IMG/VR virus record: IMGVR_UViG_3300014050_000004
Span: 32,001 to 96,000 of that record
DNA length: 64,000 nt
Reading direction: 5' to 3' (one strand)
Source: a virus
Shown here: piece after piece, positions 17,536 to 26,231 of the stretch
How the letters are laid out: each line of letters opens with the position of its first letter
How positions within the stretch are numbered: position 1 is the stretch's first letter
Program-made: the position numbers and the translations under genes
The notes under the pieces: model-generated
Told to the model about the DNA's origin: nothing
The model's database searches: none
The model's input: only the letters and a program-made list of their open reading frames with translations

Positions 17536-17700
17536 TCAGAGATACCTGCTGGCTTCCAAGGTTTCTTCGCTCACTTTGCCTTCCCTTGCTAATTTGTCTG
17601 CTGTATTGAAGGCTAGTGAAGCTTGCTCTTGTTTGTCCGGATCCCTACGAAGTCTCTTGTAGAGATCAATTAGCTCAATGTACTGTTTGTCAGATTCCAT
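17536..17700 (-). CDS. Small helical protein (54 aa), paralog of 19918..20109
   Basis: Below the ORF-track cutoff. MESDKQYIELIDLYKRLRRDPDKQEQASLAFNTADKLAREGKVSEETLEASRYL; overlaps the kinase stop by 11 nt. Confidence 0.7.
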   Translation of the reverse strand: MESDKQYIELIDLYKRLRRDPDKQEQASLAFNTADKLAREGKVSEETLEASRYL

Positions 17701-19051
17701 CGTATAGTGTGTTTATGATTTCCATTGCTTTTTGGTTGGTTAGTTTACCCCAAGCTCCCTTATTATAGAAGCTTTCGGCATTCCGTATACCAGAAGACAT
17801 CACATCTGCTATCTCATTGTCAGACATGCCCATCTCCTTCATGGTCTTTTTGACCCTGTTCAGGTTTGAGTACATCTTTCTTAGATTCGCAGGTTGATCC
17901 TGATCTGGGTAAGAGAGTCCACTCAACGGGAGATTAGCTGCTTGCACGTCTTTGTTCAAGCCGCCAGTAACAACAGAGCCTCTGGGAAGCACCGATGTTT
18001 TGACAATTGCTGACAGAGCCTCTGACAAGGCAGCTCTAGGGTTGTCCTGAGCCAACCCGAAATCCACAAGCTTGCTGGTTCCTTTCAATGGGTCAACTAT
18101 GACATTTCTGCCATGCAAATCGTTGTGAGCTATGCCCATCCTGTGAAGACGCGCTCGAGTTTCCCAGTATATGTCACCTGTTGTCTTTCCGGTGCGTTCT
18201 TTGAGGCCATTTGGAAGTAAGGGAGAGGAAATTTCGAAACCTTTGACCTTCTCCATTGCCACTCTGCCATAGAATGTGTCAATAGAGGCGAAAGTTTCAA
18301 TCCTTCTTTTTGAATCAAGCTCCCCGCAGATGAGACGTGGCCCTATTCCGTTTTCTCCTGCTTTCTTCAAAATGTCTATCTCTTTCTTGCCAAGTTCTCC
18401 TCTCTTGACCACTACATCCCCGTCAAATAGGACACTTCCGAAACCGCCGCTCTTGCCGTTCTTCCCCCTACGCGAATTATTCTCCCAGTCGTAGTCGTCC
18501 TGAACCCCTTTGACAAACTTATCAGGGAAGAAGCTCTCGTCGAAATTCCTAGCTTTTCTCTTTGTCTCTCTCGTTAGAACTCCATCAGGTTTTTGAGTCT
18601 TTTTGAGACCCAAAGCCTCATCAAGAGAGTCCAACTCCCTCTGCAAAACCTTCTCCCTTTCCTGAGCTTTGGCTGTCCCCAACTTGGCATTTTTAGCTTT
18701 TTCTTTTCGAACCTCTTCCTTCCTTTGTTTGGCCCTTTCTATGAGACCTTCCACGTCGTTGCCTATTTCTTTCCGCTCAGAGTCCCCGAGGCGCAATGCC
18801 TTTGCTAGCCCCTGAACCTGAAGCTTCCTGGAGGGAGTGTTGATTGGGTCCTCTCCCTTGAGCATTCTTGACACATCATCTAAGACATCATCATTGGTGC
18901 TCTTCGCTGTCGGAAGAGACACATTGAAAAGACCATTGATGACACTCCTCAAAGACCGAGAGACAGGTCTTGGCAAAGAGGACCTACACGTTGAATTTCT
19001 TGCTATGCATGTTGAACCGCACACCTTACCTTTTATGCACCTTCTCTTCAT
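17690..19051 (-). CDS. Protein-kinase-fold protein with N-terminal 4-Cys module
   Basis: Gly loop GKSGGFGSV, VVVKRG lysine, catalytic loop HNDLHGRNVIV and DFG motif LVDFGLA. N-terminus CIKGKVCGSTCIARNSTC. Confidence 0.85.
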   Translation of the reverse strand: MKRRCIKGKVCGSTCIARNSTCRSSLPRPVSRSLRSVINGLFNVSLPTAKSTNDDVLDDVSRMLKGEDPINTPSRKLQVQGLAKALRLGDSERKEIGNDVEGLIERAKQRKEEVRKEKAKNAKLGTAKAQEREKVLQRELDSLDEALGLKKTQKPDGVLTRETKRKARNFDESFFPDKFVKGVQDDYDWENNSRRGKNGKSGGFGSVLFDGDVVVKRGELGKKEIDILKKAGENGIGPRLICGELDSKRRIETFASIDTFYGRVAMEKVKGFEISSPLLPNGLKERTGKTTGDIYWETRARLHRMGIAHNDLHGRNVIVDPLKGTSKLVDFGLAQDNPRAALSEALSAIVKTSVLPRGSVVTGGLNKDVQAANLPLSGLSYPDQDQPANLRKMYSNLNRVKKTMKEMGMSDNEIADVMSSGIRNAESFYNKGAWGKLTNQKAMEIINTLYDGI

Positions 19052-19060
19052 TCCAGCTCC

Positions 19061-19486
19061 TCAGAAAGTGTCCGATTCGAGCATCTCCGCATATTCAAAT
19101 GCAAGGGATTCCAAAGCAGCTATCCTGTCAGTCAAAGAACTCAGTTTTTCTGAGTAGGATACTTCTTGCCCAGCTGCTAATCTGTGTTCATCATCTTTCT
19201 TCCTTGCGAGATCCTGAACTACCATCTTCGCGTCAATGTCCTCCCTCTCTTTAACCAAATTCTTGATTTCTCTCATTTGATTTTGCAAAGCCTGGAAAGC
19301 TCCCCTCTGCCTCGACAGCTTCATCTTCTCCTGCAGAGCCTCAATCTGTTCGGAAAGCTCTCTGTGTTTTTGTCCCAACACTTCGTATTCGTTGAAGCTT
19401 GCTTTTAGAGTGGATACATGCTCTGGTTCCAAAATGGTGCCTTTTGCATAATCCGTAGGCTTGTAAACCGGTTTCCTTGAACTCAT
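19061..19486 (-). CDS. Coiled-coil hypothetical protein
   Basis: 141 aa with heptad-like E/K/L/Q richness; GGGTAAA 24 nt upstream. Confidence 0.7.
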   Translation of the reverse strand: MSSRKPVYKPTDYAKGTILEPEHVSTLKASFNEYEVLGQKHRELSEQIEALQEKMKLSRQRGAFQALQNQMREIKNLVKEREDIDAKMVVQDLARKKDDEHRLAAGQEVSYSEKLSSLTDRIAALESLAFEYAEMLESDTF

Positions 19487-19500
19487 TGTTAGAAAAGGAT

Positions 19501-19887
19501 TTAATTCATTTTACCCTTTTTCGGAGCTGCCTTGCCAGTGCCAGCCACAGATCCCCAAGATACCAGGATGGGTTTCCCTCCTTTGATGGCCCAACCAAAC
19601 TTTTTTCCCGCTACCGACACAGGTTTGTTGTTCTGGACGGAGGAACCTTGCCCAGATGCTGTTTGTTTCAGCTTTCTCTCTTCATCCGTTTCTTCCCCAA
19701 CTTGTTGGTTCCCGGAACTGTCGACTCTTCTGCACAAGCCCCAAATCATCTTAGTGCCAGGGGGACAAGGGGAACCTGCCGGAGGTTGTTGTACGGGCTG
19801 GGATGTAGCGAAATCCCATTCAAGAACGGTATAGTCTCTACCCTCTACCAATCCATCCACACAAGGTATGTCGAATTGTCCAATCAT
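19501..19887 (-). CDS. Hypothetical protein with CPPG...C motif
   Basis: 128 aa; starts MIGQFD; contains CPPGTKMIWGLC; basic C-terminus. Confidence 0.7.
   Translation of the reverse strand: MIGQFDIPCVDGLVEGRDYTVLEWDFATSQPVQQPPAGSPCPPGTKMIWGLCRRVDSSGNQQVGEETDEERKLKQTASGQGSSVQNNKPVSVAGKKFGWAIKGGKPILVSWGSVAGTGKAAPKKGKMN
19510..19516 (-). promoter_or_regulatory. GGGTAAA candidate late-promoter element
   Basis: 24 nt upstream of ATG 19486; overlaps the last codons of the upstream ORF. Confidence 0.5.
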
Positions 19888-19910
19888 GTTTGTCTCTGCG
19901 TATATACGAT

Positions 19911-19917
19911 CTTACCC
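19911..19917 (-). promoter_or_regulatory. GGGTAAG candidate late-promoter element
   Basis: Immediately after the stop of 19918..20109 and 24 nt upstream of ATG 19887. Confidence 0.6.
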
Positions 19918-20109
19918 TTACAAGTAATCAGAGCCCAATACAATTTCCCTTCTGACATTACCACTTTTCTTGATCTTCATGGCAGCCTTTAGAAATTCGT
20001 TGGCTTCTGGCCCCATGCCTACTCTCCTGGCTTGTTTGTACTTTGCCATCAAAAACATGTACTCTTTTTCTTCGTCGTTCATATCAGAAACCTCTTGAAA
20101 TTTCACCAC
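19918..20109 (-). CDS. Small helical protein, paralog of 17536..17700 (alternative start ATG 20082)
   Basis: EKEYMFLMAKYKQARR...A...A.K....G.V..E...SDYL aligns with the 54-aa protein; overlaps the stop of 20103..20975. Confidence 0.7.
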   Translation of the reverse strand: MVKFQEVSDMNDEEKEYMFLMAKYKQARRVGMGPEANEFLKAAMKIKKSGNVRREIVLGSDYL

Positions 20110-20975
20110 TTGACCTTGTCAGCCCAGTACGCACTTGAGGATGGTCCTTTCTCTATGTTCTTAGCGTGGCGGGCTTGAAAAGACTCTCTCCTGGCCTTGT
20201 ACGCTTCGCTCTCTCCTTCCTTTTTCGGAGAACCCTTGACTCCTTGTTGACCGAACCTTTTTATCTCTTGAGTGCCGCCAGAAGAAACTTCTTCCTTCCC
20301 TCTGTAACAAGCCTTAACTATGTGAGATTTGGTCGGATGGTCAGGAGTTGCCTTAGGTTTGTTGCACTCAAGTTCGTCTTTGTTCACCCTTTCGTAAAAC
20401 TCAGATATAACCTCTTCGGCTCTCTTAATTCTCTCCTTAAGCAACTCTGATTGCTCCTTGTGGAACTTGAATTTTTTGAGTATGAGATTGATCTCGGCTG
20501 CCGGCCCTGATCTACCCCCAAGCTTCTCATACTTCCTTTTGGCTTCTTTCATGGCTTCGTTATGCTCATCAAGCTCTCCTTTCATATTCTTGAGCTTTCT
20601 TGGGCTGATTTTGCCAAGTTGAGTTTGTGGTTTTGTAGGTTGACTCTCTCCTAGCCATTCCCTGGCCTGCTGTTTCGCTTTTTGGAGTGTTAAACCCTCC
20701 TTCTTTTGTTTGCCAACCGTCACAGTATATCGGGCCTGCTTACCGGGTTCTCTTATACCTCCCCCTCCAGTAAATGCATCCTCTGCCATTATAGAGCCAA
20801 CATTGCGACCTTGGTCGTCTTTCACAGAAAACAGCCCAGTCTCCCTCCTTTGAATACTGACGGCGGACCCTTTGCGACAGGTGCCAGCGGTCCCATAGGT
20901 TGTTCCATCCGGGCGCTGGCATCTGGTAAACTCATGCACAGAAGCAAGAATGGAGGGGTTAATGCTTCCAAACAT
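20103..20975 (-). CDS. Modular hypothetical protein (Cys module + coiled coil + basic C-terminal phage domain)
   Basis: N-terminal EFTRCQRPDGTTYGTAGTCRKG; C-terminal PDHPTKSHIVKAC...IKRFGQQG...RRESFQARHAKNI...SAYWADKVKW. Confidence 0.7.
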   Translation of the reverse strand: MFGSINPSILASVHEFTRCQRPDGTTYGTAGTCRKGSAVSIQRRETGLFSVKDDQGRNVGSIMAEDAFTGGGGIREPGKQARYTVTVGKQKKEGLTLQKAKQQAREWLGESQPTKPQTQLGKISPRKLKNMKGELDEHNEAMKEAKRKYEKLGGRSGPAAEINLILKKFKFHKEQSELLKERIKRAEEVISEFYERVNKDELECNKPKATPDHPTKSHIVKACYRGKEEVSSGGTQEIKRFGQQGVKGSPKKEGESEAYKARRESFQARHAKNIEKGPSSSAYWADKVKW

Positions 20976-20978
20976 GGT

Positions 20979-21380
20979 TCAATCTCTGAAACTCAGGTAA
21001 TCTGACACTGAGGAAAGGTTTTGCTTACTCATTGTAATCTTGGCTGCAACCCAGGGCTCCAAATTGTCTTCTGGGGTGATTTGGCTTAGAATTTGCATGA
21101 TGTCTGAAGCCATTGCCCTCAACTCGGACATTGCCATTCGAGCATTCGGCTCAACCTCAACCTCATCCTCTTCATCTTCCCAATCCGAACCCCAGGCCTC
21201 ATCCTCATCGTCATACCCACCCTCTTCTTCTTCAAGGTCATCCCCGAAGAACATGTTAGGGTTGGAGTATGCCGCCCGTGAAGCTAAGGCAGGGGCTACT
21301 ACCATGTAGTCTACGGGGTTTTCTAGACCCTCTGAAAAGGACCTTAAAGAGTCCTCTGAAAAACTTCCCCACTGATTCAT
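20979..21380 (-). CDS. Acidic hypothetical protein, possibly head-internal
   Basis: Start revised to ATG 21380 (ATGA overlap). MNQWGSFSEDSLRSFSEG, a D/E tract, then MAMSELRAM...DNLEPWVAAKIT...VSDYL. Confidence 0.7.
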   Translation of the reverse strand: MNQWGSFSEDSLRSFSEGLENPVDYMVVAPALASRAAYSNPNMFFGDDLEEEEGGYDDEDEAWGSDWEDEEDEVEVEPNARMAMSELRAMASDIMQILSQITPEDNLEPWVAAKITMSKQNLSSVSDYLSFRD

Positions 21381-21904
21381 TTCTTTTTCCGTTTGAGATT
21401 TTTCCAAAGGTCTGCGTCAGCTTCTCTAGCTTTGCCAACCCCTGTTATGAAAGAGTTTACCCTTGCTAAGGCCCACTGTTGAGGAGCTACTCCGGGCCTG
21501 TGACCGGATCTCCAAGCAGCCATACCTCTGTTGTACACCTTTTTCAGTATGCTCAAGGGAATGCCAGATTTCTTAGACTTGTTCTCCAGAGCTTTGATCG
21601 AAGGCTTTTTCTTCTTCATCTCTGCAAACTTATCTTCAAAAGCTGCAGTGGCTTTGGACTTGGGAATGCTTTCATTCCTCTTTCTGAACCTTTTGTCTGA
21701 TTCCCAATCTTTGTACAATTCTTTGGAGCTGACTTTGCCTTCAGAGGCTTTTTTCATGGTTCTTTGAACCTCTCTCTGAGCTATATTTTGCTCCTCCAAA
21801 GTTAACCCTTTCTTATAGCTATCCGGCAAGTTCCTCTCTATGTACTCCGTATTGAATCCTAGAGAGGCTACCCTGGCCCAATCATAGGGGTTTGAGCGCG
21901 TCAT
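21377..21904 (-). CDS. Basic hypothetical protein (widespread viral family, DUF5824-like)
   Basis: C-terminal KSGIPLSILKKVYNRGMAAWRSGHRPGVAPQQWALARVNSFI. Confidence 0.6.
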   Translation of the reverse strand: MTRSNPYDWARVASLGFNTEYIERNLPDSYKKGLTLEEQNIAQREVQRTMKKASEGKVSSKELYKDWESDKRFRKRNESIPKSKATAAFEDKFAEMKKKKPSIKALENKSKKSGIPLSILKKVYNRGMAAWRSGHRPGVAPQQWALARVNSFITGVGKAREADADLWKNLKRKKK

Positions 21905-22235
21905 TAGGGTTCTTTATTTGTACTTTGTAGAATTCCATTTTCAGCTCTTCTACTTTTTCAGACAGCCTATAGAAATCTTCTTTCAAGACATACTTGGTAG
22001 GTAATTCAGCTCTGATGTCGTTGACTGCGTCCTGAACTTTCTGAACATGGAACAGCACCAGGTCGACTTTTTCCTTGCTTTCAGAGAAGATCTTGTCCTC
22101 TCGCTCCTTGGCCTCTTCTCTAACTTTTTCAACCCTTGTGGACCCTTGGCTTTGAAGCCAAAAAGCTCCCCCAACCCCGCTAGCTGCAGCGGTTATGATC
22201 AAAGATGCAATACCCAGTACAATTTCTGGTCCCAT
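21882..22235 (-). CDS. Single-TM coiled-coil membrane protein
   Basis: Hydrophobic N-terminus IVLGIASLIITAAASGVGGAFWL followed by a coiled coil with ELPTKYVLKEDF. Confidence 0.65.
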   Translation of the reverse strand: MGPEIVLGIASLIITAAASGVGGAFWLQSQGSTRVEKVREEAKEREDKIFSESKEKVDLVLFHVQKVQDAVNDIRAELPTKYVLKEDFYRLSEKVEELKMEFYKVQIKNPNDALKPL

Positions 22236-22238
22236 GAC

Positions 22239-23219
22239 TCATTCCCTCCCTGGCAAACCAGATTTTCCTTCTTTCAATCTCTGCTTCACAGATTCTGGGA
22301 GACCTGACTCCCATCCGTTTTTCTTTGCGATGGCAATGATCTTTTTCATTACAAGGTCAGGGTTCTTGGCCCGCCCAACAGAAGACCAAGCGGCACTTAC
22401 ATCTTGAGGACTTGAGATTGGGAAAGACATGCCAGGGCCAGCAAAGTCTCCCTTGACTGAGCCTTTCTGCAATTCTTTTCTCTCCTCCACAGTCCACTCT
22501 CTGAATTCTGGAGTGGGTAAACCAGATTCCCCCTTACCAAGTCTCTCCTTGACGCTTTCTGGCAAACCAGATTCCCATCCGTACTTCTTGGCAATTTTTA
22601 TGATATTCGCCATCACTTTGCGGGGGTCTTTTGCTCTCCCAACAGAAGTCCAAGCTGTTCCCACATCTTCTGGGCTAGCAATGGGGAAAGACATACCAGG
22701 ACCAGCAAATTCTCCCTTCATTTCTCCGCTGTGGAGCTTCTCTCTCTTTTCGGAAGACCACTCTCGGAATTCTCGGTCGAGTTTGGCTTTACAGGAAGAG
22801 CATTTACACTTACCTGGCCCTTCACACTTTGAGGAACACCCTTCTTCGAACACCGCCTGAGGCATCGATAAGAGTTCTGAATCATCAGCAAACTTGTATT
22901 CTTGTTTCTTAATCTCACGGAAAGCAGCAGCCCTGGCCTTCTTTCTACTCATGATTTCTTTCATGACTTCAGGCCCTTCAGCATGCTCGTTCCGATTGCG
23001 GTTGATTAAGCCAGCCCTCTTTTCTCGGGCTTTACGATTCATCTCCAGGATCGACTCATTGTGGTAGGTTAGATTTCCGTCCTCATCCGTCCTCCACTTT
23101 TTGCCGGATTTGTTCATTTCTGCTAATTTGTCTGAAGAAATTGCTGTAGCAGCGTTGATAGCTCCCCCAACCCCTGGCAGAGTCACTGAAGAAAAGTTGA
23201 GGTTGGGTATGTCCATCAC
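22239..23219 (-). CDS. Hypothetical protein with Cys cluster and duplicated domain (DUF6582-like)
   Basis: CSSKCEGPGKCKCSSC followed by two 88-aa repeats; GGGTAAA 21-24 nt upstream. Confidence 0.7.
   Translation of the reverse strand: MMDIPNLNFSSVTLPGVGGAINAATAISSDKLAEMNKSGKKWRTDEDGNLTYHNESILEMNRKAREKRAGLINRNRNEHAEGPEVMKEIMSRKKARAAAFREIKKQEYKFADDSELLSMPQAVFEEGCSSKCEGPGKCKCSSCKAKLDREFREWSSEKREKLHSGEMKGEFAGPGMSFPIASPEDVGTAWTSVGRAKDPRKVMANIIKIAKKYGWESGLPESVKERLGKGESGLPTPEFREWTVEERKELQKGSVKGDFAGPGMSFPISSPQDVSAAWSSVGRAKNPDLVMKKIIAIAKKNGWESGLPESVKQRLKEGKSGLPGRE
22245..22772 (-). repeat. Coding tandem duplication with a 264-nt period
   Basis: EFREWSSEKREKL...GEFAGPGMSFPIASPEDV...WESGLPESVKERL and EFREWTVEERKEL...GDFAGPGMSFPISSPQDV...WESGLPESVKQRL. 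Confidence 0.9.
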
Positions 23220-23239
23220 AGAGAATTTGGCTGTTAAGT

Positions 23240-23246
23240 TTTACCC
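23240..23246 (-). promoter_or_regulatory. GGGTAAA candidate late-promoter element
   Basis: Intergenic, 21-24 nt upstream of starts 23219/23216. Confidence 0.65.
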
Positions 23247-23253
23247 TGTTACT

Positions 23254-23565
23254 TTAGGGGTTTGCTTCATTATTGTCTTGTTGTGGTGTTTCCTTGCGCT
23301 TTCTGCTTTGTCCTAGAGCTGTTACAGACCCTTGAGAAGCAGAAGGAACAAGCAATGCCAGCAAAGTGGCAAGTGCAACCTTGCCGGTCTCACTGAGAGA
23401 GGAAGCAGCGTTGTTACACACGAGAGTGACCTTTTCAGACTCTTTTGAGGACTGAATTGCCGAGTGGCAGGAGAACATTTGGTACCCCACGGTCACAAAT
23501 TGAACCACGAAGATACTCACAAGAGCCCTAATCAGGAATGCTCTCTCATTGAACTGATTCAGCAT
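23254..23565 (-). CDS. Two-TM membrane protein (holin candidate)
   Basis: Hydrophobic segments FLIRALVSIFVVQFVTVGY and VALATLLALLV; charged C-terminal tail. Confidence 0.5.
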   Translation of the reverse strand: MLNQFNERAFLIRALVSIFVVQFVTVGYQMFSCHSAIQSSKESEKVTLVCNNAASSLSETGKVALATLLALLVPSASQGSVTALGQSRKRKETPQQDNNEANP

Positions 23566-23590
23566 CTGAGTAAAATTGAGTACCTAGGAG

Positions 23591-23597
23591 TTTACCC
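23591..23597 (-). promoter_or_regulatory. GGGTAAA candidate late-promoter element
   Basis: Directly after the stop at 23598 and 26 nt upstream of ATG 23565. Confidence 0.65.
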
Positions 23598-24134
23598 TCA
23601 AACCTCATCCATCAGTTCTGCGATGATGTTATCAATCTCAGAATCACCCCCTTCTGCTTCATCGGATGCGAGATCATCTTCAAGAATGTCAAGAAGATCT
23701 TCAAGCTCATCCACCGTTATGTCAATGTCAGCCTCATCTTCCATATCTTCTTCAAACTCATCGGATCGGGACTCAAGAATACCTTCTAGCAATAGCTCAA
23801 GTTCTTGATCTTCCTCGTCATATTCCTCCTCTTCTCCCTCAAGAATGTCATCAAGCAACAGCTCAAGTTCCTCCTCTGTGAGTTCCTCCTCTTCTTCACC
23901 TTGAGCTTGAATTACCAGGCTCTGGTTGGCTTGAAACAAAGGGTCATTTCCAGGGTTAGCCTTCCACAAGCCTGTGTGTTGAATCCAGGGAGAGGTATTG
24001 ATGACGGTGTCAGTGGGTAACCCAGTGTATTCGTCGATCTCAATGTCCTCAGGGACTTGCAAACTCTGGGCGTAAGCCATCCTGAAAGCTTCAATGGATT
24101 CGGTGTCAAAATCCCCGTTGATTCTGTTAACCAT
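23598..24134 (-). CDS. Highly acidic scaffold-like protein
   Basis: Start revised to ATG 24134 (MVNRINGDFDTESIEAF), 28 nt below GGGTAAG. Repeated E/D-rich amphipathic helices (EELELLLDDILE, ELEDLLDILE, EIDNIIAELMDE). Confidence 0.7.
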   Translation of the reverse strand: MVNRINGDFDTESIEAFRMAYAQSLQVPEDIEIDEYTGLPTDTVINTSPWIQHTGLWKANPGNDPLFQANQSLVIQAQGEEEEELTEEELELLLDDILEGEEEEYDEEDQELELLLEGILESRSDEFEEDMEDEADIDITVDELEDLLDILEDDLASDEAEGGDSEIDNIIAELMDEV

Positions 24135-24161
24135 GGTTGAGAAGTAAAGTTTCAGTGTAAA

Positions 24162-24168
24162 CTTACCC
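24162..24168 (-). promoter_or_regulatory. GGGTAAG candidate late-promoter element
   Basis: Overlaps the stop of 24163..24405; 28 nt upstream of ATG 24134. Confidence 0.6.
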
Positions 24169-24405
24169 TTTATCCCTCCATCCAGACATCTTTCCAGACA
24201 CATCTTGCAAAAGCTTAGAGTTGCCTTGAAGGTTGCCTGTGGAACTTTCTTCAAAGGTGGGACTTACAGTCTCCGAAAGCTTGTCTAGCAATGCCCCGTG
24301 TTCTTTATTAACAGCCCTTCTACACACCCGGTCGGCTGACACGAGCAAGGGTCCGCAAGGCACAAGACCTTGACTTTCTATGGACAATTTGACATTCTTC
24401 GTCAT
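24163..24405 (-). CDS. Hypothetical protein
   Basis: 80 aa; ATGA overlap with the upstream gene. Confidence 0.55.
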   Translation of the reverse strand: MTKNVKLSIESQGLVPCGPLLVSADRVCRRAVNKEHGALLDKLSETVSPTFEESSTGNLQGNSKLLQDVSGKMSGWRDKG

Positions 24406-24737
24406 GCGGATGTCCTATCTGGGTTGTGCCAAGTGTTCAGGTAGTCGGGATAATGAGAGTTCATTTTGCGTTCTAACCGAGGTTTAACATCTTCTTTGTT
24501 GCTTTCTCTCATCCCAGCAATAACTGCATCTCTCATTTTTCTAAGATCTTCTCTTGGAACGTTGCAATGAGGGCTGTCCCTGTAAGTGCGGAACCACCTG
24601 CAGACCTCGGAAGGGTCGTCTGACTGAAGCATCATGTTCCAAACAACGGTAGCCTGAGAATCCTTGAATATGCCGGATGGCAATCTGGCCTCCAGATCTT
24701 CTCTACTTGGGCGTTTGAAGCGTGTGTCTCTCCTCAT
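24402..24737 (-). CDS. Hypothetical protein immediately downstream of the HNH gene
   Basis: 111 aa; starts 2 nt after the HNH gene stop. Confidence 0.65.
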   Translation of the reverse strand: MRRDTRFKRPSREDLEARLPSGIFKDSQATVVWNMMLQSDDPSEVCRWFRTYRDSPHCNVPREDLRKMRDAVIAGMRESNKEDVKPRLERKMNSHYPDYLNTWHNPDRTSA

Positions 24738-24738
24738 G

Positions 24739-26208
24739 TTACAACAAATTGTCTAGGTTGGGGACAAATTCCCTCAGCACTTGAGACAAATCATCACCAT
24801 ATTCGCTACTCTTCTGCTTCTGCAGGGCGAGCCTTGCGCTATTATTTCCTCTCACCGACATTGCCTCCTCGTCGGTCAAAATGCGAGCTTTTCTTAGGTC
24901 TTCCAGTTGTCCAATAAGTTGTTGTTTTTTCGAGGGGTCGACTGCTGCCAAAGCAATGAGAACGGCAGTACTCGGTTTAACTTTGGTTCCTGGCAAGGTT
25001 GGGACTCCATTGTTCATGAAAGCTGGCTTGCCTCCCATCCTGTGGTCAAGGTCTCTGTCTTGGTGCTGCCAACCCACCCCTGCCGCTCTTATCAAGTACC
25101 TTACCTTGTCACCGTAAGACTCAACAAGTTTCTTGGTATTTGCAACTCTTTCCTCGGGCGTGATGCTTGACAAAGCTTGGGACAATTCTCCAGGAGCTTG
25201 AGCCTTCTTGCCTTTCGTCGCCGCCGCCGACTCCGTAGCCGGATTGTACACCTGGTTGTTGTACTCTTCCCTTCCCATTTTCTGATACTTTTCAAGGGAT
25301 TGTTTCCACTTGGTAAAGTTGTCATCGGCTCCAGCCTTCTGGTTGTTTGGTTGAGCGGCTGCCCAGAGGAGGTTCCTTGGCTGGTCTCCGCCACCACCTT
25401 TCGCCAAAGCGTGTGCAAACGCCACCATGTGTTCCGGTTCGGCATTTCTGATGTCAATTGGCTTCCCAGTGTAGGGGTCTAGCCCACCTTGTTCCATCCA
25501 TCTTTTGACAAGGAACACACCCCTTGCTTTTGTCGGCTTACTTGAAAAGGTCGGATTACCTTTCTCGTCGTCCCCCGCATACATTACGCCTTCGCCCTTC
25601 ACAGCCCCAGCTTTGTCAATCGCAGATCTAACCTTTGCTGGCAACATGTTGTAGGCTGCTACAGCTACGGAGTCAGAGATTTCATTTTTGAGGTATTCAT
25701 TTTTGATGAGATCTCCCATACCTCCCTTTGCAGAAGGGTCAAACTTTCCTTCTTTTGAGAAAGAGGCCTGGTAAGCCTTCTCAAGGCTCTCCAGCTTCCC
25801 TGGCTTCAAAGCTGCTTCAATTTCATCGAAACTCATGACCCTTGGGGCATTCCTGTCTTGCCCGGGAGTTACGATCGTGCTGATGAGGAGGTTGGCAACT
25901 GAGTCAAGCTCTGTGTCCGAGGTTTTACCGGTATCAACCAGTTTCTTGAACAAGTCAAAAGCTTTCTGTTGGGAAGGCTCAATGTCCTTCAACTTTGAGA
26001 CCACTTCTTCAGCAGTTCCTTCCGACACTGAGCCTTGCTCCACCCGCTCAGACAGCAATTTAGAAACTTTTGAGATTGCCAAGCCTAAGGAAGGTGGCAA
26101 ATCTACCACACATTGATTGTTACGGTATATGCATGTAGCTCCGCAAGACTTCCCCTTGGTGCACTTGTCTTTTGAAGAAGGACTTTGGAAGTCGAACCAA
26201 TGAACCAT
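24739..26208 (-). CDS. HNH-type endonuclease with N-terminal 4-Cys module
   Basis: Likely start ATG 26208 (MVHWFDF); CTKGKSCGATCIYRNNQC; HNH core WMEQGGLDPYTGKPID...EPEHMVAF...DQPRNLLWAAAQPNNQK. Confidence 0.7.
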   Translation of the reverse strand: MVHWFDFQSPSSKDKCTKGKSCGATCIYRNNQCVVDLPPSLGLAISKVSKLLSERVEQGSVSEGTAEEVVSKLKDIEPSQQKAFDLFKKLVDTGKTSDTELDSVANLLISTIVTPGQDRNAPRVMSFDEIEAALKPGKLESLEKAYQASFSKEGKFDPSAKGGMGDLIKNEYLKNEISDSVAVAAYNMLPAKVRSAIDKAGAVKGEGVMYAGDDEKGNPTFSSKPTKARGVFLVKRWMEQGGLDPYTGKPIDIRNAEPEHMVAFAHALAKGGGGDQPRNLLWAAAQPNNQKAGADDNFTKWKQSLEKYQKMGREEYNNQVYNPATESAAATKGKKAQAPGELSQALSSITPEERVANTKKLVESYGDKVRYLIRAAGVGWQHQDRDLDHRMGGKPAFMNNGVPTLPGTKVKPSTAVLIALAAVDPSKKQQLIGQLEDLRKARILTDEEAMSVRGNNSARLALQKQKSSEYGDDLSQVLREFVPNLDNLL

Positions 26209-26231
26209 TTTTGCACGCATCAATACAAAAG

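Follow-up and report, generated by a model that had tools for sequence, protein, structure and literature searches.

The window analysed here is a 64-kb stretch of virus DNA that comprises bases 32001-96000 of the 118-kb IMG/VR contig IMGVR_UViG_3300014050_000004, whose closest cultured relative is Synechococcus phage S-CBWM1 (Aokuangvirus), one of the non-T4 Synechococcus myoviruses. Two of its genes, both on the minus strand, encode a protein-kinase-like protein and an HNH-type nuclease that share a small four-cysteine module near their N-termini. We found the same module in front of many other phage-encoded enzymes, and proteins that carry it have been detected in virions. On balance we favour the view that the module is a portable mark of effectors delivered by the virion, and most likely the handle by which they are loaded.

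The four-cysteine module and its two carriers in the window

The core of the module follows the pattern C-x-K-G-K-x-C-G-x2-C-I-x6-C, and in a wider form the position after x2-C can be I or V. A strict regular expression returned exactly two matches in the six frames of the window, one in the kinase and one in the HNH protein. The sequence-only reading had proposed a four-cysteine head common to these two proteins with 12 of 18 core residues identical, and this is what we observed. In the kinase the 18-residue core (residues 5-22) lies at 18986-19039 on the minus strand and begins one base later than had been given (18985). The core of the HNH protein (residues 21-38) lies at 26110-26163, also on the minus strand, exactly where it had been placed. 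Read on the plus strand, the coordinates given earlier yield no sensible protein sequence. BLASTP pairs only residues 2-37 of the first protein with residues 18-53 of the second (E 6e-8), which agrees with the earlier claim that the remainder of both proteins is unrelated. The common piece itself is real but larger than the 18 residues proposed, with a length of about 36-44 residues. Regular expression and profile matches delimit the module to residues 2-44 of the kinase (18920-19048, minus strand) and, together with BLASTP, to residues 18-60 of the HNH protein (26044-26172, minus strand).

The unit of about 40 residues consists of a basic pair, the four-cysteine core and a helix of the type L-P-x2-V-x3-L. 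As translated, the core and its flanks are strongly basic, and a K or R stands directly before the first cysteine in 113 of 124 viral and 107 of 118 bacterial copies. The DNA of the two cores in the window agrees in 32 of 54 bases (59%), and 7 of the 12 identical residues share their codon. A recent copy or a gene conversion between the two is ruled out by this low identity. Because of the same values we attribute the conservation of the module to the protein level, and we regard the two copies as old paralogous modules kept by selection.

In the AlphaFold2 model of the kinase module, residues 9-16 form a beta-hairpin and residues 28-42 a helix; the mean predicted local distance difference test score (pLDDT) is 79. 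The cysteines are spaced as C-x5-C-x3-C-x6-C, and the two C-x2-C or C-x2-H pairs of a classical zinc knuckle or ribbon are absent from this layout. No fold relative of the model was found by Foldseek against the PDB or by VIA-align over 48,161 chains. The module profile had no match among the PDB sequences, the ESM Atlas gave no usable match, and no model in Pfam, NCBIfam or PHROGs covers the module. Several candidate identities were discarded. A weak PDGF match on one module is an artefact of the cysteine pattern, a lipoprotein or signal peptide was dropped for the phage forms as they have no hydrophobic stretch, and a radical-SAM or ferredoxin-type Fe-S motif was dropped as the cysteine spacing is unsuited.

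The kinase gene (P0001; 17690-19051, minus strand; 453 amino acids, aa) encodes the N-terminal module, a linker and a protein-kinase-like domain. The protein starts with Met and three basic residues, followed by the four-cysteine core, and the linker (about residues 60-190) is charged and rich in Lys and Glu. For the catalytic core (about residues 195-350; 18002-18469, minus strand) we obtained Pfam and NCBIfam matches at residues 254-340, and the translation displays a Gly-rich loop, the catalytic loop H-N-D-L-H-G-R-N (H-x-D-x4-N type) and a D-F-G motif. The Pkinase match (E 7e-6) is under the gathering score; APH and Bud32/RIO-like matches were recorded too. The protein is homologous to annotated phage kinases, and its kinase domain is 28% identical to the gp14 kinase detected in virions of S-CREM2. 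Judged by its sequence features, the 453-aa protein has a protein-kinase-like fold.

The gene of the HNH-type nuclease (P0002; 24739-26223, minus strand; 494 aa) encodes a leader, the module, a helical region, a Cas9-type HNH core and a C-terminal region. The HNH core (about residues 240-300; 25324-25506, minus strand) was located by the family alignment and by the family profile, which matches the Cas9 HNH domain in the PDB (E 4.5e-7). Residues H265, N284 and N293 are invariant across the 16 aligned family members, and one homologue (L009) scores above the Pfam HNH_4 cut-off. The catalytic arrangement of Cas9/HNH_4-type nucleases (D-x-Y-T-G ... [DE]-H ... N ... N) can be recognized in the predicted protein. 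Each of the two window proteins has a single enzyme domain, and the labels 'kinase' and 'HNH' that they had been given can be kept in view of the Pkinase/APH/Bud32-like catalytic loop and the Cas9 HNH profile match. The leader of the HNH family upstream of the module (26172-26223) is conserved in its own right, with the type W-F-D-F-x-D-S-R, and vaguely resembles the F-D-x-F start of virion proteins of T4-like cyanophages.

Spread of the module and the enzymes behind it

A chance likeness of two cysteine-rich N-termini has nothing in its favour beyond the short length of the motif, and we consider it refuted. Next to the pairwise E-value given above, the exact motif, back-translated, occurs at no fewer than 118 viral IMG/VR loci, where by our own estimate about one would be expected by chance. 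The fourth cysteine lies outside the search pattern and was nevertheless present in 44 of 44 aligned viral modules and in 116 of 118 bacterial modules. A profile built from the 44 modules matched 1,213 protein-cluster representatives at E<=1e-3, 94 of them at E<=1e-10, among 1.84 billion. The sequence-only reading had named confinement of the motif to two proteins with fixed partners as the outcome that would count against it; with at least 118 viral loci and many different enzymes this is not what we see. The exact motif was also found on at least 120 bacterial contigs.

In the databases all carriers are named 'hypothetical protein' except for one DnaJ-based name, and a literature search for the module's motif strings gave no match. 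The module is undescribed, with no entry in Pfam, NCBIfam, the PDB or the literature searched. When the window module was compared with 50,697 phage records by tblastn it recovered S-CBWM1 only, and a query taken from a giant relative found Aphanizomenon phage CL131. A profile made from S-CBWM1-type modules alone recovers the proteins of CL131 and of a Nostoc prophage with sequence E-values of 1e-21 to 1e-31.

Among the best 149 library matches the module is located at the extreme N-terminus in 31 and after a leader of 13-130 residues in 52. A further 30 are giant proteins with 1-4 modules by exact cysteine spacing, and 34 are short secreted forms. By profile, giant carriers have up to 5 modules. 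In the aligned phage carriers the module is placed at the N-terminus or within about 140 residues, ahead of a linker. The earlier description of the module as the head of a protein fits these carriers, but the module also occurs inside giant proteins and in secreted bacterial proteins. Most bacterial ORFs (open reading frames) with the motif are short and end in the module, with extra cysteines. They include a large family of small signal-peptide proteins in Alphaproteobacteria, Gammaproteobacteria and other bacteria (loci L128-L247; e.g. L133, L134 and L142). The family ends in C-C-K-x-C-x-K-G-K-x-C-G-x-S-C-I-x5-C-H-x3-G-C-A-C-x-G, has 8 cysteines and often shows a His after the fourth core cysteine. 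This unnamed secreted family might bind metal in the periplasm.

The partners that follow the module in phages are diverse. We identified kinases, HNH_4, ADPrib_exo_Tox, ART, ART-PolyVal, Zeta_toxin and GNAT domains as well as LRAT/NlpC, lipases, DUF676 esterases, DnaJ and many unnamed domains. One carrier with a signal-peptide-like leader combines the module with a staphylococcal-type nuclease (SNase) and an Ada zinc-binding domain. Every copy of the module in the scanned giant proteins precedes one enzyme domain. The clearest pattern was observed on the Mu-like contigs, where tandem paralogues share an N-terminal block of about 200 aa that is 92-100% identical and consists of a 125-aa domain, the module and a Lys-rich linker, whereas the C-termini are unrelated. 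The sequence-only reading had inferred a polymorphic effector system from the two window proteins, and these near-identical blocks in tandem genes bear it out.

Virion detection, gene context and a possible loading function

The profile marks four ORFs in CL131, namely ORF044, ORF045 (weakly, E 0.08), ORF047 and ORF048, the last of which has five modules. All four are contained in the proteome of CsCl (caesium chloride)-purified particles determined by LC-MS/MS (liquid chromatography-tandem mass spectrometry), and ORF048 has the top score of the virion list with 105 peptides and 55% coverage (PMC6293099 Table S5). In S-CBWM1 we counted five module proteins: gp106 (HNH-like), gp113 (RIO-like kinase), gp161 (ChoK-like kinase), gp162 (APH-like kinase) and gp174, which is 48% identical to the HNH protein of the window and annotated as 'virion structural protein'. 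Three kinases are reported for S-CBWM1 virions, by citation of Xu et al. 2018 in another paper. By annotation name they correspond to gp162, gp161 and gp113, all of which bear the module, and the fourth kinase of this phage, gp173, has no module and is not among the virion kinases listed in that citation. For the four S-CBWM1 kinases, the presence of the module and the virion detection cited there match exactly. The S-CBWM1 record (MG450654.1) contains in-frame ATGs upstream of gp113 (70464-71324) and gp161 (117887-118702) that add the four-cysteine module. The annotated start codons leave the module out, and both genes are probably longer than the record states.

For the gene context of the relatives we called the ORFs in the fetched loci. 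On the Mu-like contigs TerL, Portal_Mu and Mu_F are followed by the module genes, a virion-morphogenesis gene and the head protease. Locus L072 shows the run portal, module gene, kinase, MuF; in L063 the module is fused behind a lambda-type portal, and in L074 the module gene is located beside an LPD1 protein and MuF. The module gene adjoins the large terminase in L031 and in the window, and in a Nostoc linckia prophage and in CL131 the module genes lie between the head genes and the tape-measure gene. The Nostoc linckia z4 prophage encodes a 1,748-aa protein (L251:10828-16071) with five profile-detected modules and matches to a DUF676 esterase and a HipA-like kinase. Its gene directly precedes a 2,991-aa tape-measure-like gene (L251:16078-25050), and the head genes of this prophage are Mu-like. 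In our phage the module block lies between a baseplate wedge gene and PhoH/TerL, and the order of large terminase, PhoH, module-HNH, module-kinase and baseplate wedge gene (~1,600 aa) is syntenic with S-CBWM1. A profile search of the whole contig revealed a third module outside the window, at the head of a 256-aa kinase.

The sequence-only reading had offered several functions for the module, of which the loading of cargo into the head fits best with the virion proteome of CL131, with that of S-CBWM1 as cited and with the gene context. According to this reading a module of about 40 residues, made up of a basic pair, a four-cysteine beta-hairpin knuckle and a helix, would be placed before enzymes that are built into the particle. 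Module and helix would act as a handle that takes the cargo into the assembling particle, and the four cysteines may coordinate a metal, probably zinc, or pair as disulfides after leaving the cell. After ejection the delivered enzymes would act early on host proteins and DNA. In the phage studied here the cargo would consist of the protein kinase, the Cas9-type HNH nuclease and the second kinase beyond the window. It is also conceivable, though we hold this with less confidence, that the module is a general loading address across unrelated tailed-phage lineages (S-CBWM1-like myoviruses, Mu-like phages, lambda-portal phages and PaV-LD/CL131-like cyanophages) which docks to something common to assembling particles.

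Several observations weigh against a loading handle. What the virion proteomes show is the presence of the carrier proteins; a requirement for the module in loading, or its sufficiency, would go beyond these detections, and for S-CBWM1 the data come from a citation in another paper. With a 5/3/6 spacing the cysteines match none of the classical zinc motifs, and the searches for a structural relative were negative. A common docking partner is not evident, because the module does not go together with any one family of head proteins, the portal types differ, and MuF (PF04233) had no match in the two window proteins, the phage contig or S-CBWM1. Its absence from this phage also rules out MuF as the universal partner of the module. 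Two of the module-bearing kinase genes are located outside the structural gene block.

Cargo can also be associated with virions behind other N-termini. The S-CBWM1 NMNAT (gp39) is reported in the virion, in the same citation, behind a different tag of the form D-F-T-R-C-x-R-P-D-G-x2-Y-G-T-x-G-x-C-[RK]-K-G, to which we refer as the second tag. With the three module kinases and gp39, all four non-structural virion enzymes named for S-CBWM1 in that source bear one of the two cysteine-containing tags. In the T4-like cyanophages S-CREM2 (gp14, gp12) and S-CRM01 the homologues of the window kinase and HNH cargo are virion proteins by proteomics and have neither the module nor N-terminal cysteines. 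Instead gp14 and gp6 of S-CREM2, like the kinase of S-CRM01, start with F-D-x-F-L-x-E, which was seen only in these T4-like phages, so that the same cargo appears behind lineage-specific N-terminal tags. This start resembles what we take to be the capsid-targeting sequence (CTS) of T4. A homologue in S-TIM5 without the module is merely annotated under 'virion structural protein and packaging'. Furthermore, 107 of the 118 bacterial motif ORFs show a signal-peptide-like hydrophobic stretch upstream of the motif, and the fold is therefore generic and has a life outside virions.

Many of these points would suit a generic knuckle that binds metal or polyanions such as DNA and stabilises or localises the enzyme, while leaders, linkers or C-terminal domains decide on packaging. 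The strongly basic core and flanks, the secreted bacterial carriers including the fusion with SNase and the Ada domain, the homologous cargo that reaches virions without the module, the missing common head partner and the additional conserved leaders upstream of the module in many carriers all speak for such a knuckle. So do the several copies per polypeptide, which a simple address tag does not need and which count against a loading handle as well. We nevertheless regard it as less likely, although it is the main rival. In the aligned phage carriers the module keeps its place at or near the N-terminus before the linker, and 61 of 70 long viral carriers have no signal-peptide-like stretch upstream. 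To judge from these translations the protein-heading cytoplasmic form is the phage form of the module. The exact correspondence of module and cited virion detection for the four S-CBWM1 kinases and the detection of all four profile-marked ORFs in CL131 virions also argue against a knuckle without a role in packaging. As a rule the head acquires its internal proteins before the DNA is packaged, as in the assembly of T4, P22 and SPP1, and DNA binding alone would therefore not be sufficient to load them.

The module could alternatively act after ejection, as a disulfide- or metal-stapled knob that together with the helix anchors the cargo in the host envelope or threads it through. The secreted bacterial homologues with 8 cysteines and the frequent lipase and esterase partners point in this direction. 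In CL131 and the Nostoc prophage, moreover, each module is followed by a hydrophobic Gly/Ala helix, and the genes are located just before the tape-measure gene. The character of this helix differs between phages, however: it is Gly/Ala-rich and hydrophobic in PaV-LD/CL131-type phages and amphipathic in the phage studied here. The two window proteins have no hydrophobic helix after the module. The targets of a kinase and an HNH nuclease are cytoplasmic, and entry into the particle would be left unexplained. We assign little probability to an action after ejection as the sole function. As it leaves particle entry unexplained, it may supplement the loading of cargo rather than compete with it.

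The neighbourhood of the two carriers in the window contains further candidates. An accessory gene of 290 aa (P0003; 20103-20975, minus strand) has an N-terminal tag with two cysteines and a C-terminal domain assigned to phrog_7595, and it probably belongs to the same cargo set. Its tag is a copy of the second tag (residues 19-36; 20868-20921, minus strand), which heads six ORFs of the phage contig; the other five copies lie outside the window, on the minus strand at about positions 2795, 4659, 7896, 8752 and 10271 of the contig. Besides gp39 the second tag also heads gp165 of S-CBWM1. The phrog_7595 domain comprises the C-terminal ~90 aa of the 290-aa gene product (20103-20378). The same domain forms the C-terminus of a kinase whose gene lies between portal and MuF on another viral contig (L072:2041-3282), and it also matches a part of phrog_220 ('minor head protein and DNA pilot'). 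Two small ORFs on the minus strand, one of 54 aa (17536-17700) which overlaps the stop of the kinase gene and one (19918-20109) which overlaps the stop of the 290-aa gene, are paralogous (BLASTP E 4e-5, 33% identity over 51 aa). Both may be partner, chaperone or immunity genes. The HNH gene is immediately followed by a gene of 111 aa (24402-24737, minus strand); its homologues (neighbour cluster 7) occur at 17 loci, and in most syntenic arrays they come next after the module gene.

Comparison with known systems

Phages inject enzymes along with their DNA. Loading signals for such enzymes have been described in a very small number of phages, namely the T4 CTS, the MuF fusions and the Dar system of P1. 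A recognizable tag of about 40 residues would allow the prediction of injected effectors from sequence in cyanophages and uncultured phages, and it would name over a thousand 'hypothetical' protein clusters. If the module is a general address, more than 1,200 protein clusters would be injected effectors. The tag would also correct start codons in reference genomes, e.g. for the two S-CBWM1 kinase genes, and would mark the two window enzymes, kinase and Cas9-type HNH nuclease, as probable weapons in the first minute of an attack on Synechococcus. Should the module be sufficient for loading, it could be used in laboratory strains to pack proteins of choice into phage particles.

The closest counterparts are the virion kinases and the HNH ('Cas9-like') nuclease of S-CBWM1 (as cited), S-CREM2 and S-CRM01 and the products of CL131 ORF044-048, which are cargo homologues or module carriers. 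The accessible parts of the papers on these four phages make no note of the shared four-cysteine module.

The CTS of the T4 internal proteins IPI-III and Alt is likewise a short conserved N-terminal element on diverse proteins that are packed into the head and injected; its principle, diverse cargo behind a conserved tag, is given in PMC3012670. The T4 CTS is linear, about 10 residues long and free of cysteines. The prohead protease cuts it off, and its sufficiency for loading has been shown experimentally. The module, in contrast, is a folded four-cysteine domain of about 40 residues that also occurs inside long proteins, and at the N-termini of the two window proteins this domain is found in place of a ~10-residue CTS of the IP/Alt type.

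In the MuF polymorphic toxins and fusions (PMC5576092, PMC3482391), too, the N-terminal delivery part is conserved and the toxin or enzyme domains at the C-terminus vary. The module genes show the same feature beside portal and terminase genes. Both systems are phage-encoded in this setting, and on the Mu-like contigs the module genes even adjoin the MuF gene. They differ in the carrier, as the module has no PF04233 and is ten times smaller, and no clear immunity gene was identified for the module genes.

Polyvalent proteins (PMC5512222) are multi-enzyme proteins whose genes likewise lie with those for packaging, and they are predicted to enter the particle and to be injected. The module genes of the window agree with them in this respect, since their block lies among packaging and late genes between the baseplate wedge gene and PhoH/TerL and its products are predicted to be packaged. 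The four-cysteine module is not among the described polyvalent domains (the word 'cysteine' is absent from PMC5512222), and none of the Pfam models for polyvalent proteins covers it. The window proteins carry a single effector each instead of two to fifteen. The giant relatives, however, do share the multi-domain feature, and as in polyvalent proteins the module occurs in them together with ART-PolyVal, zeta toxin and lipase domains and with LPD1 neighbours.

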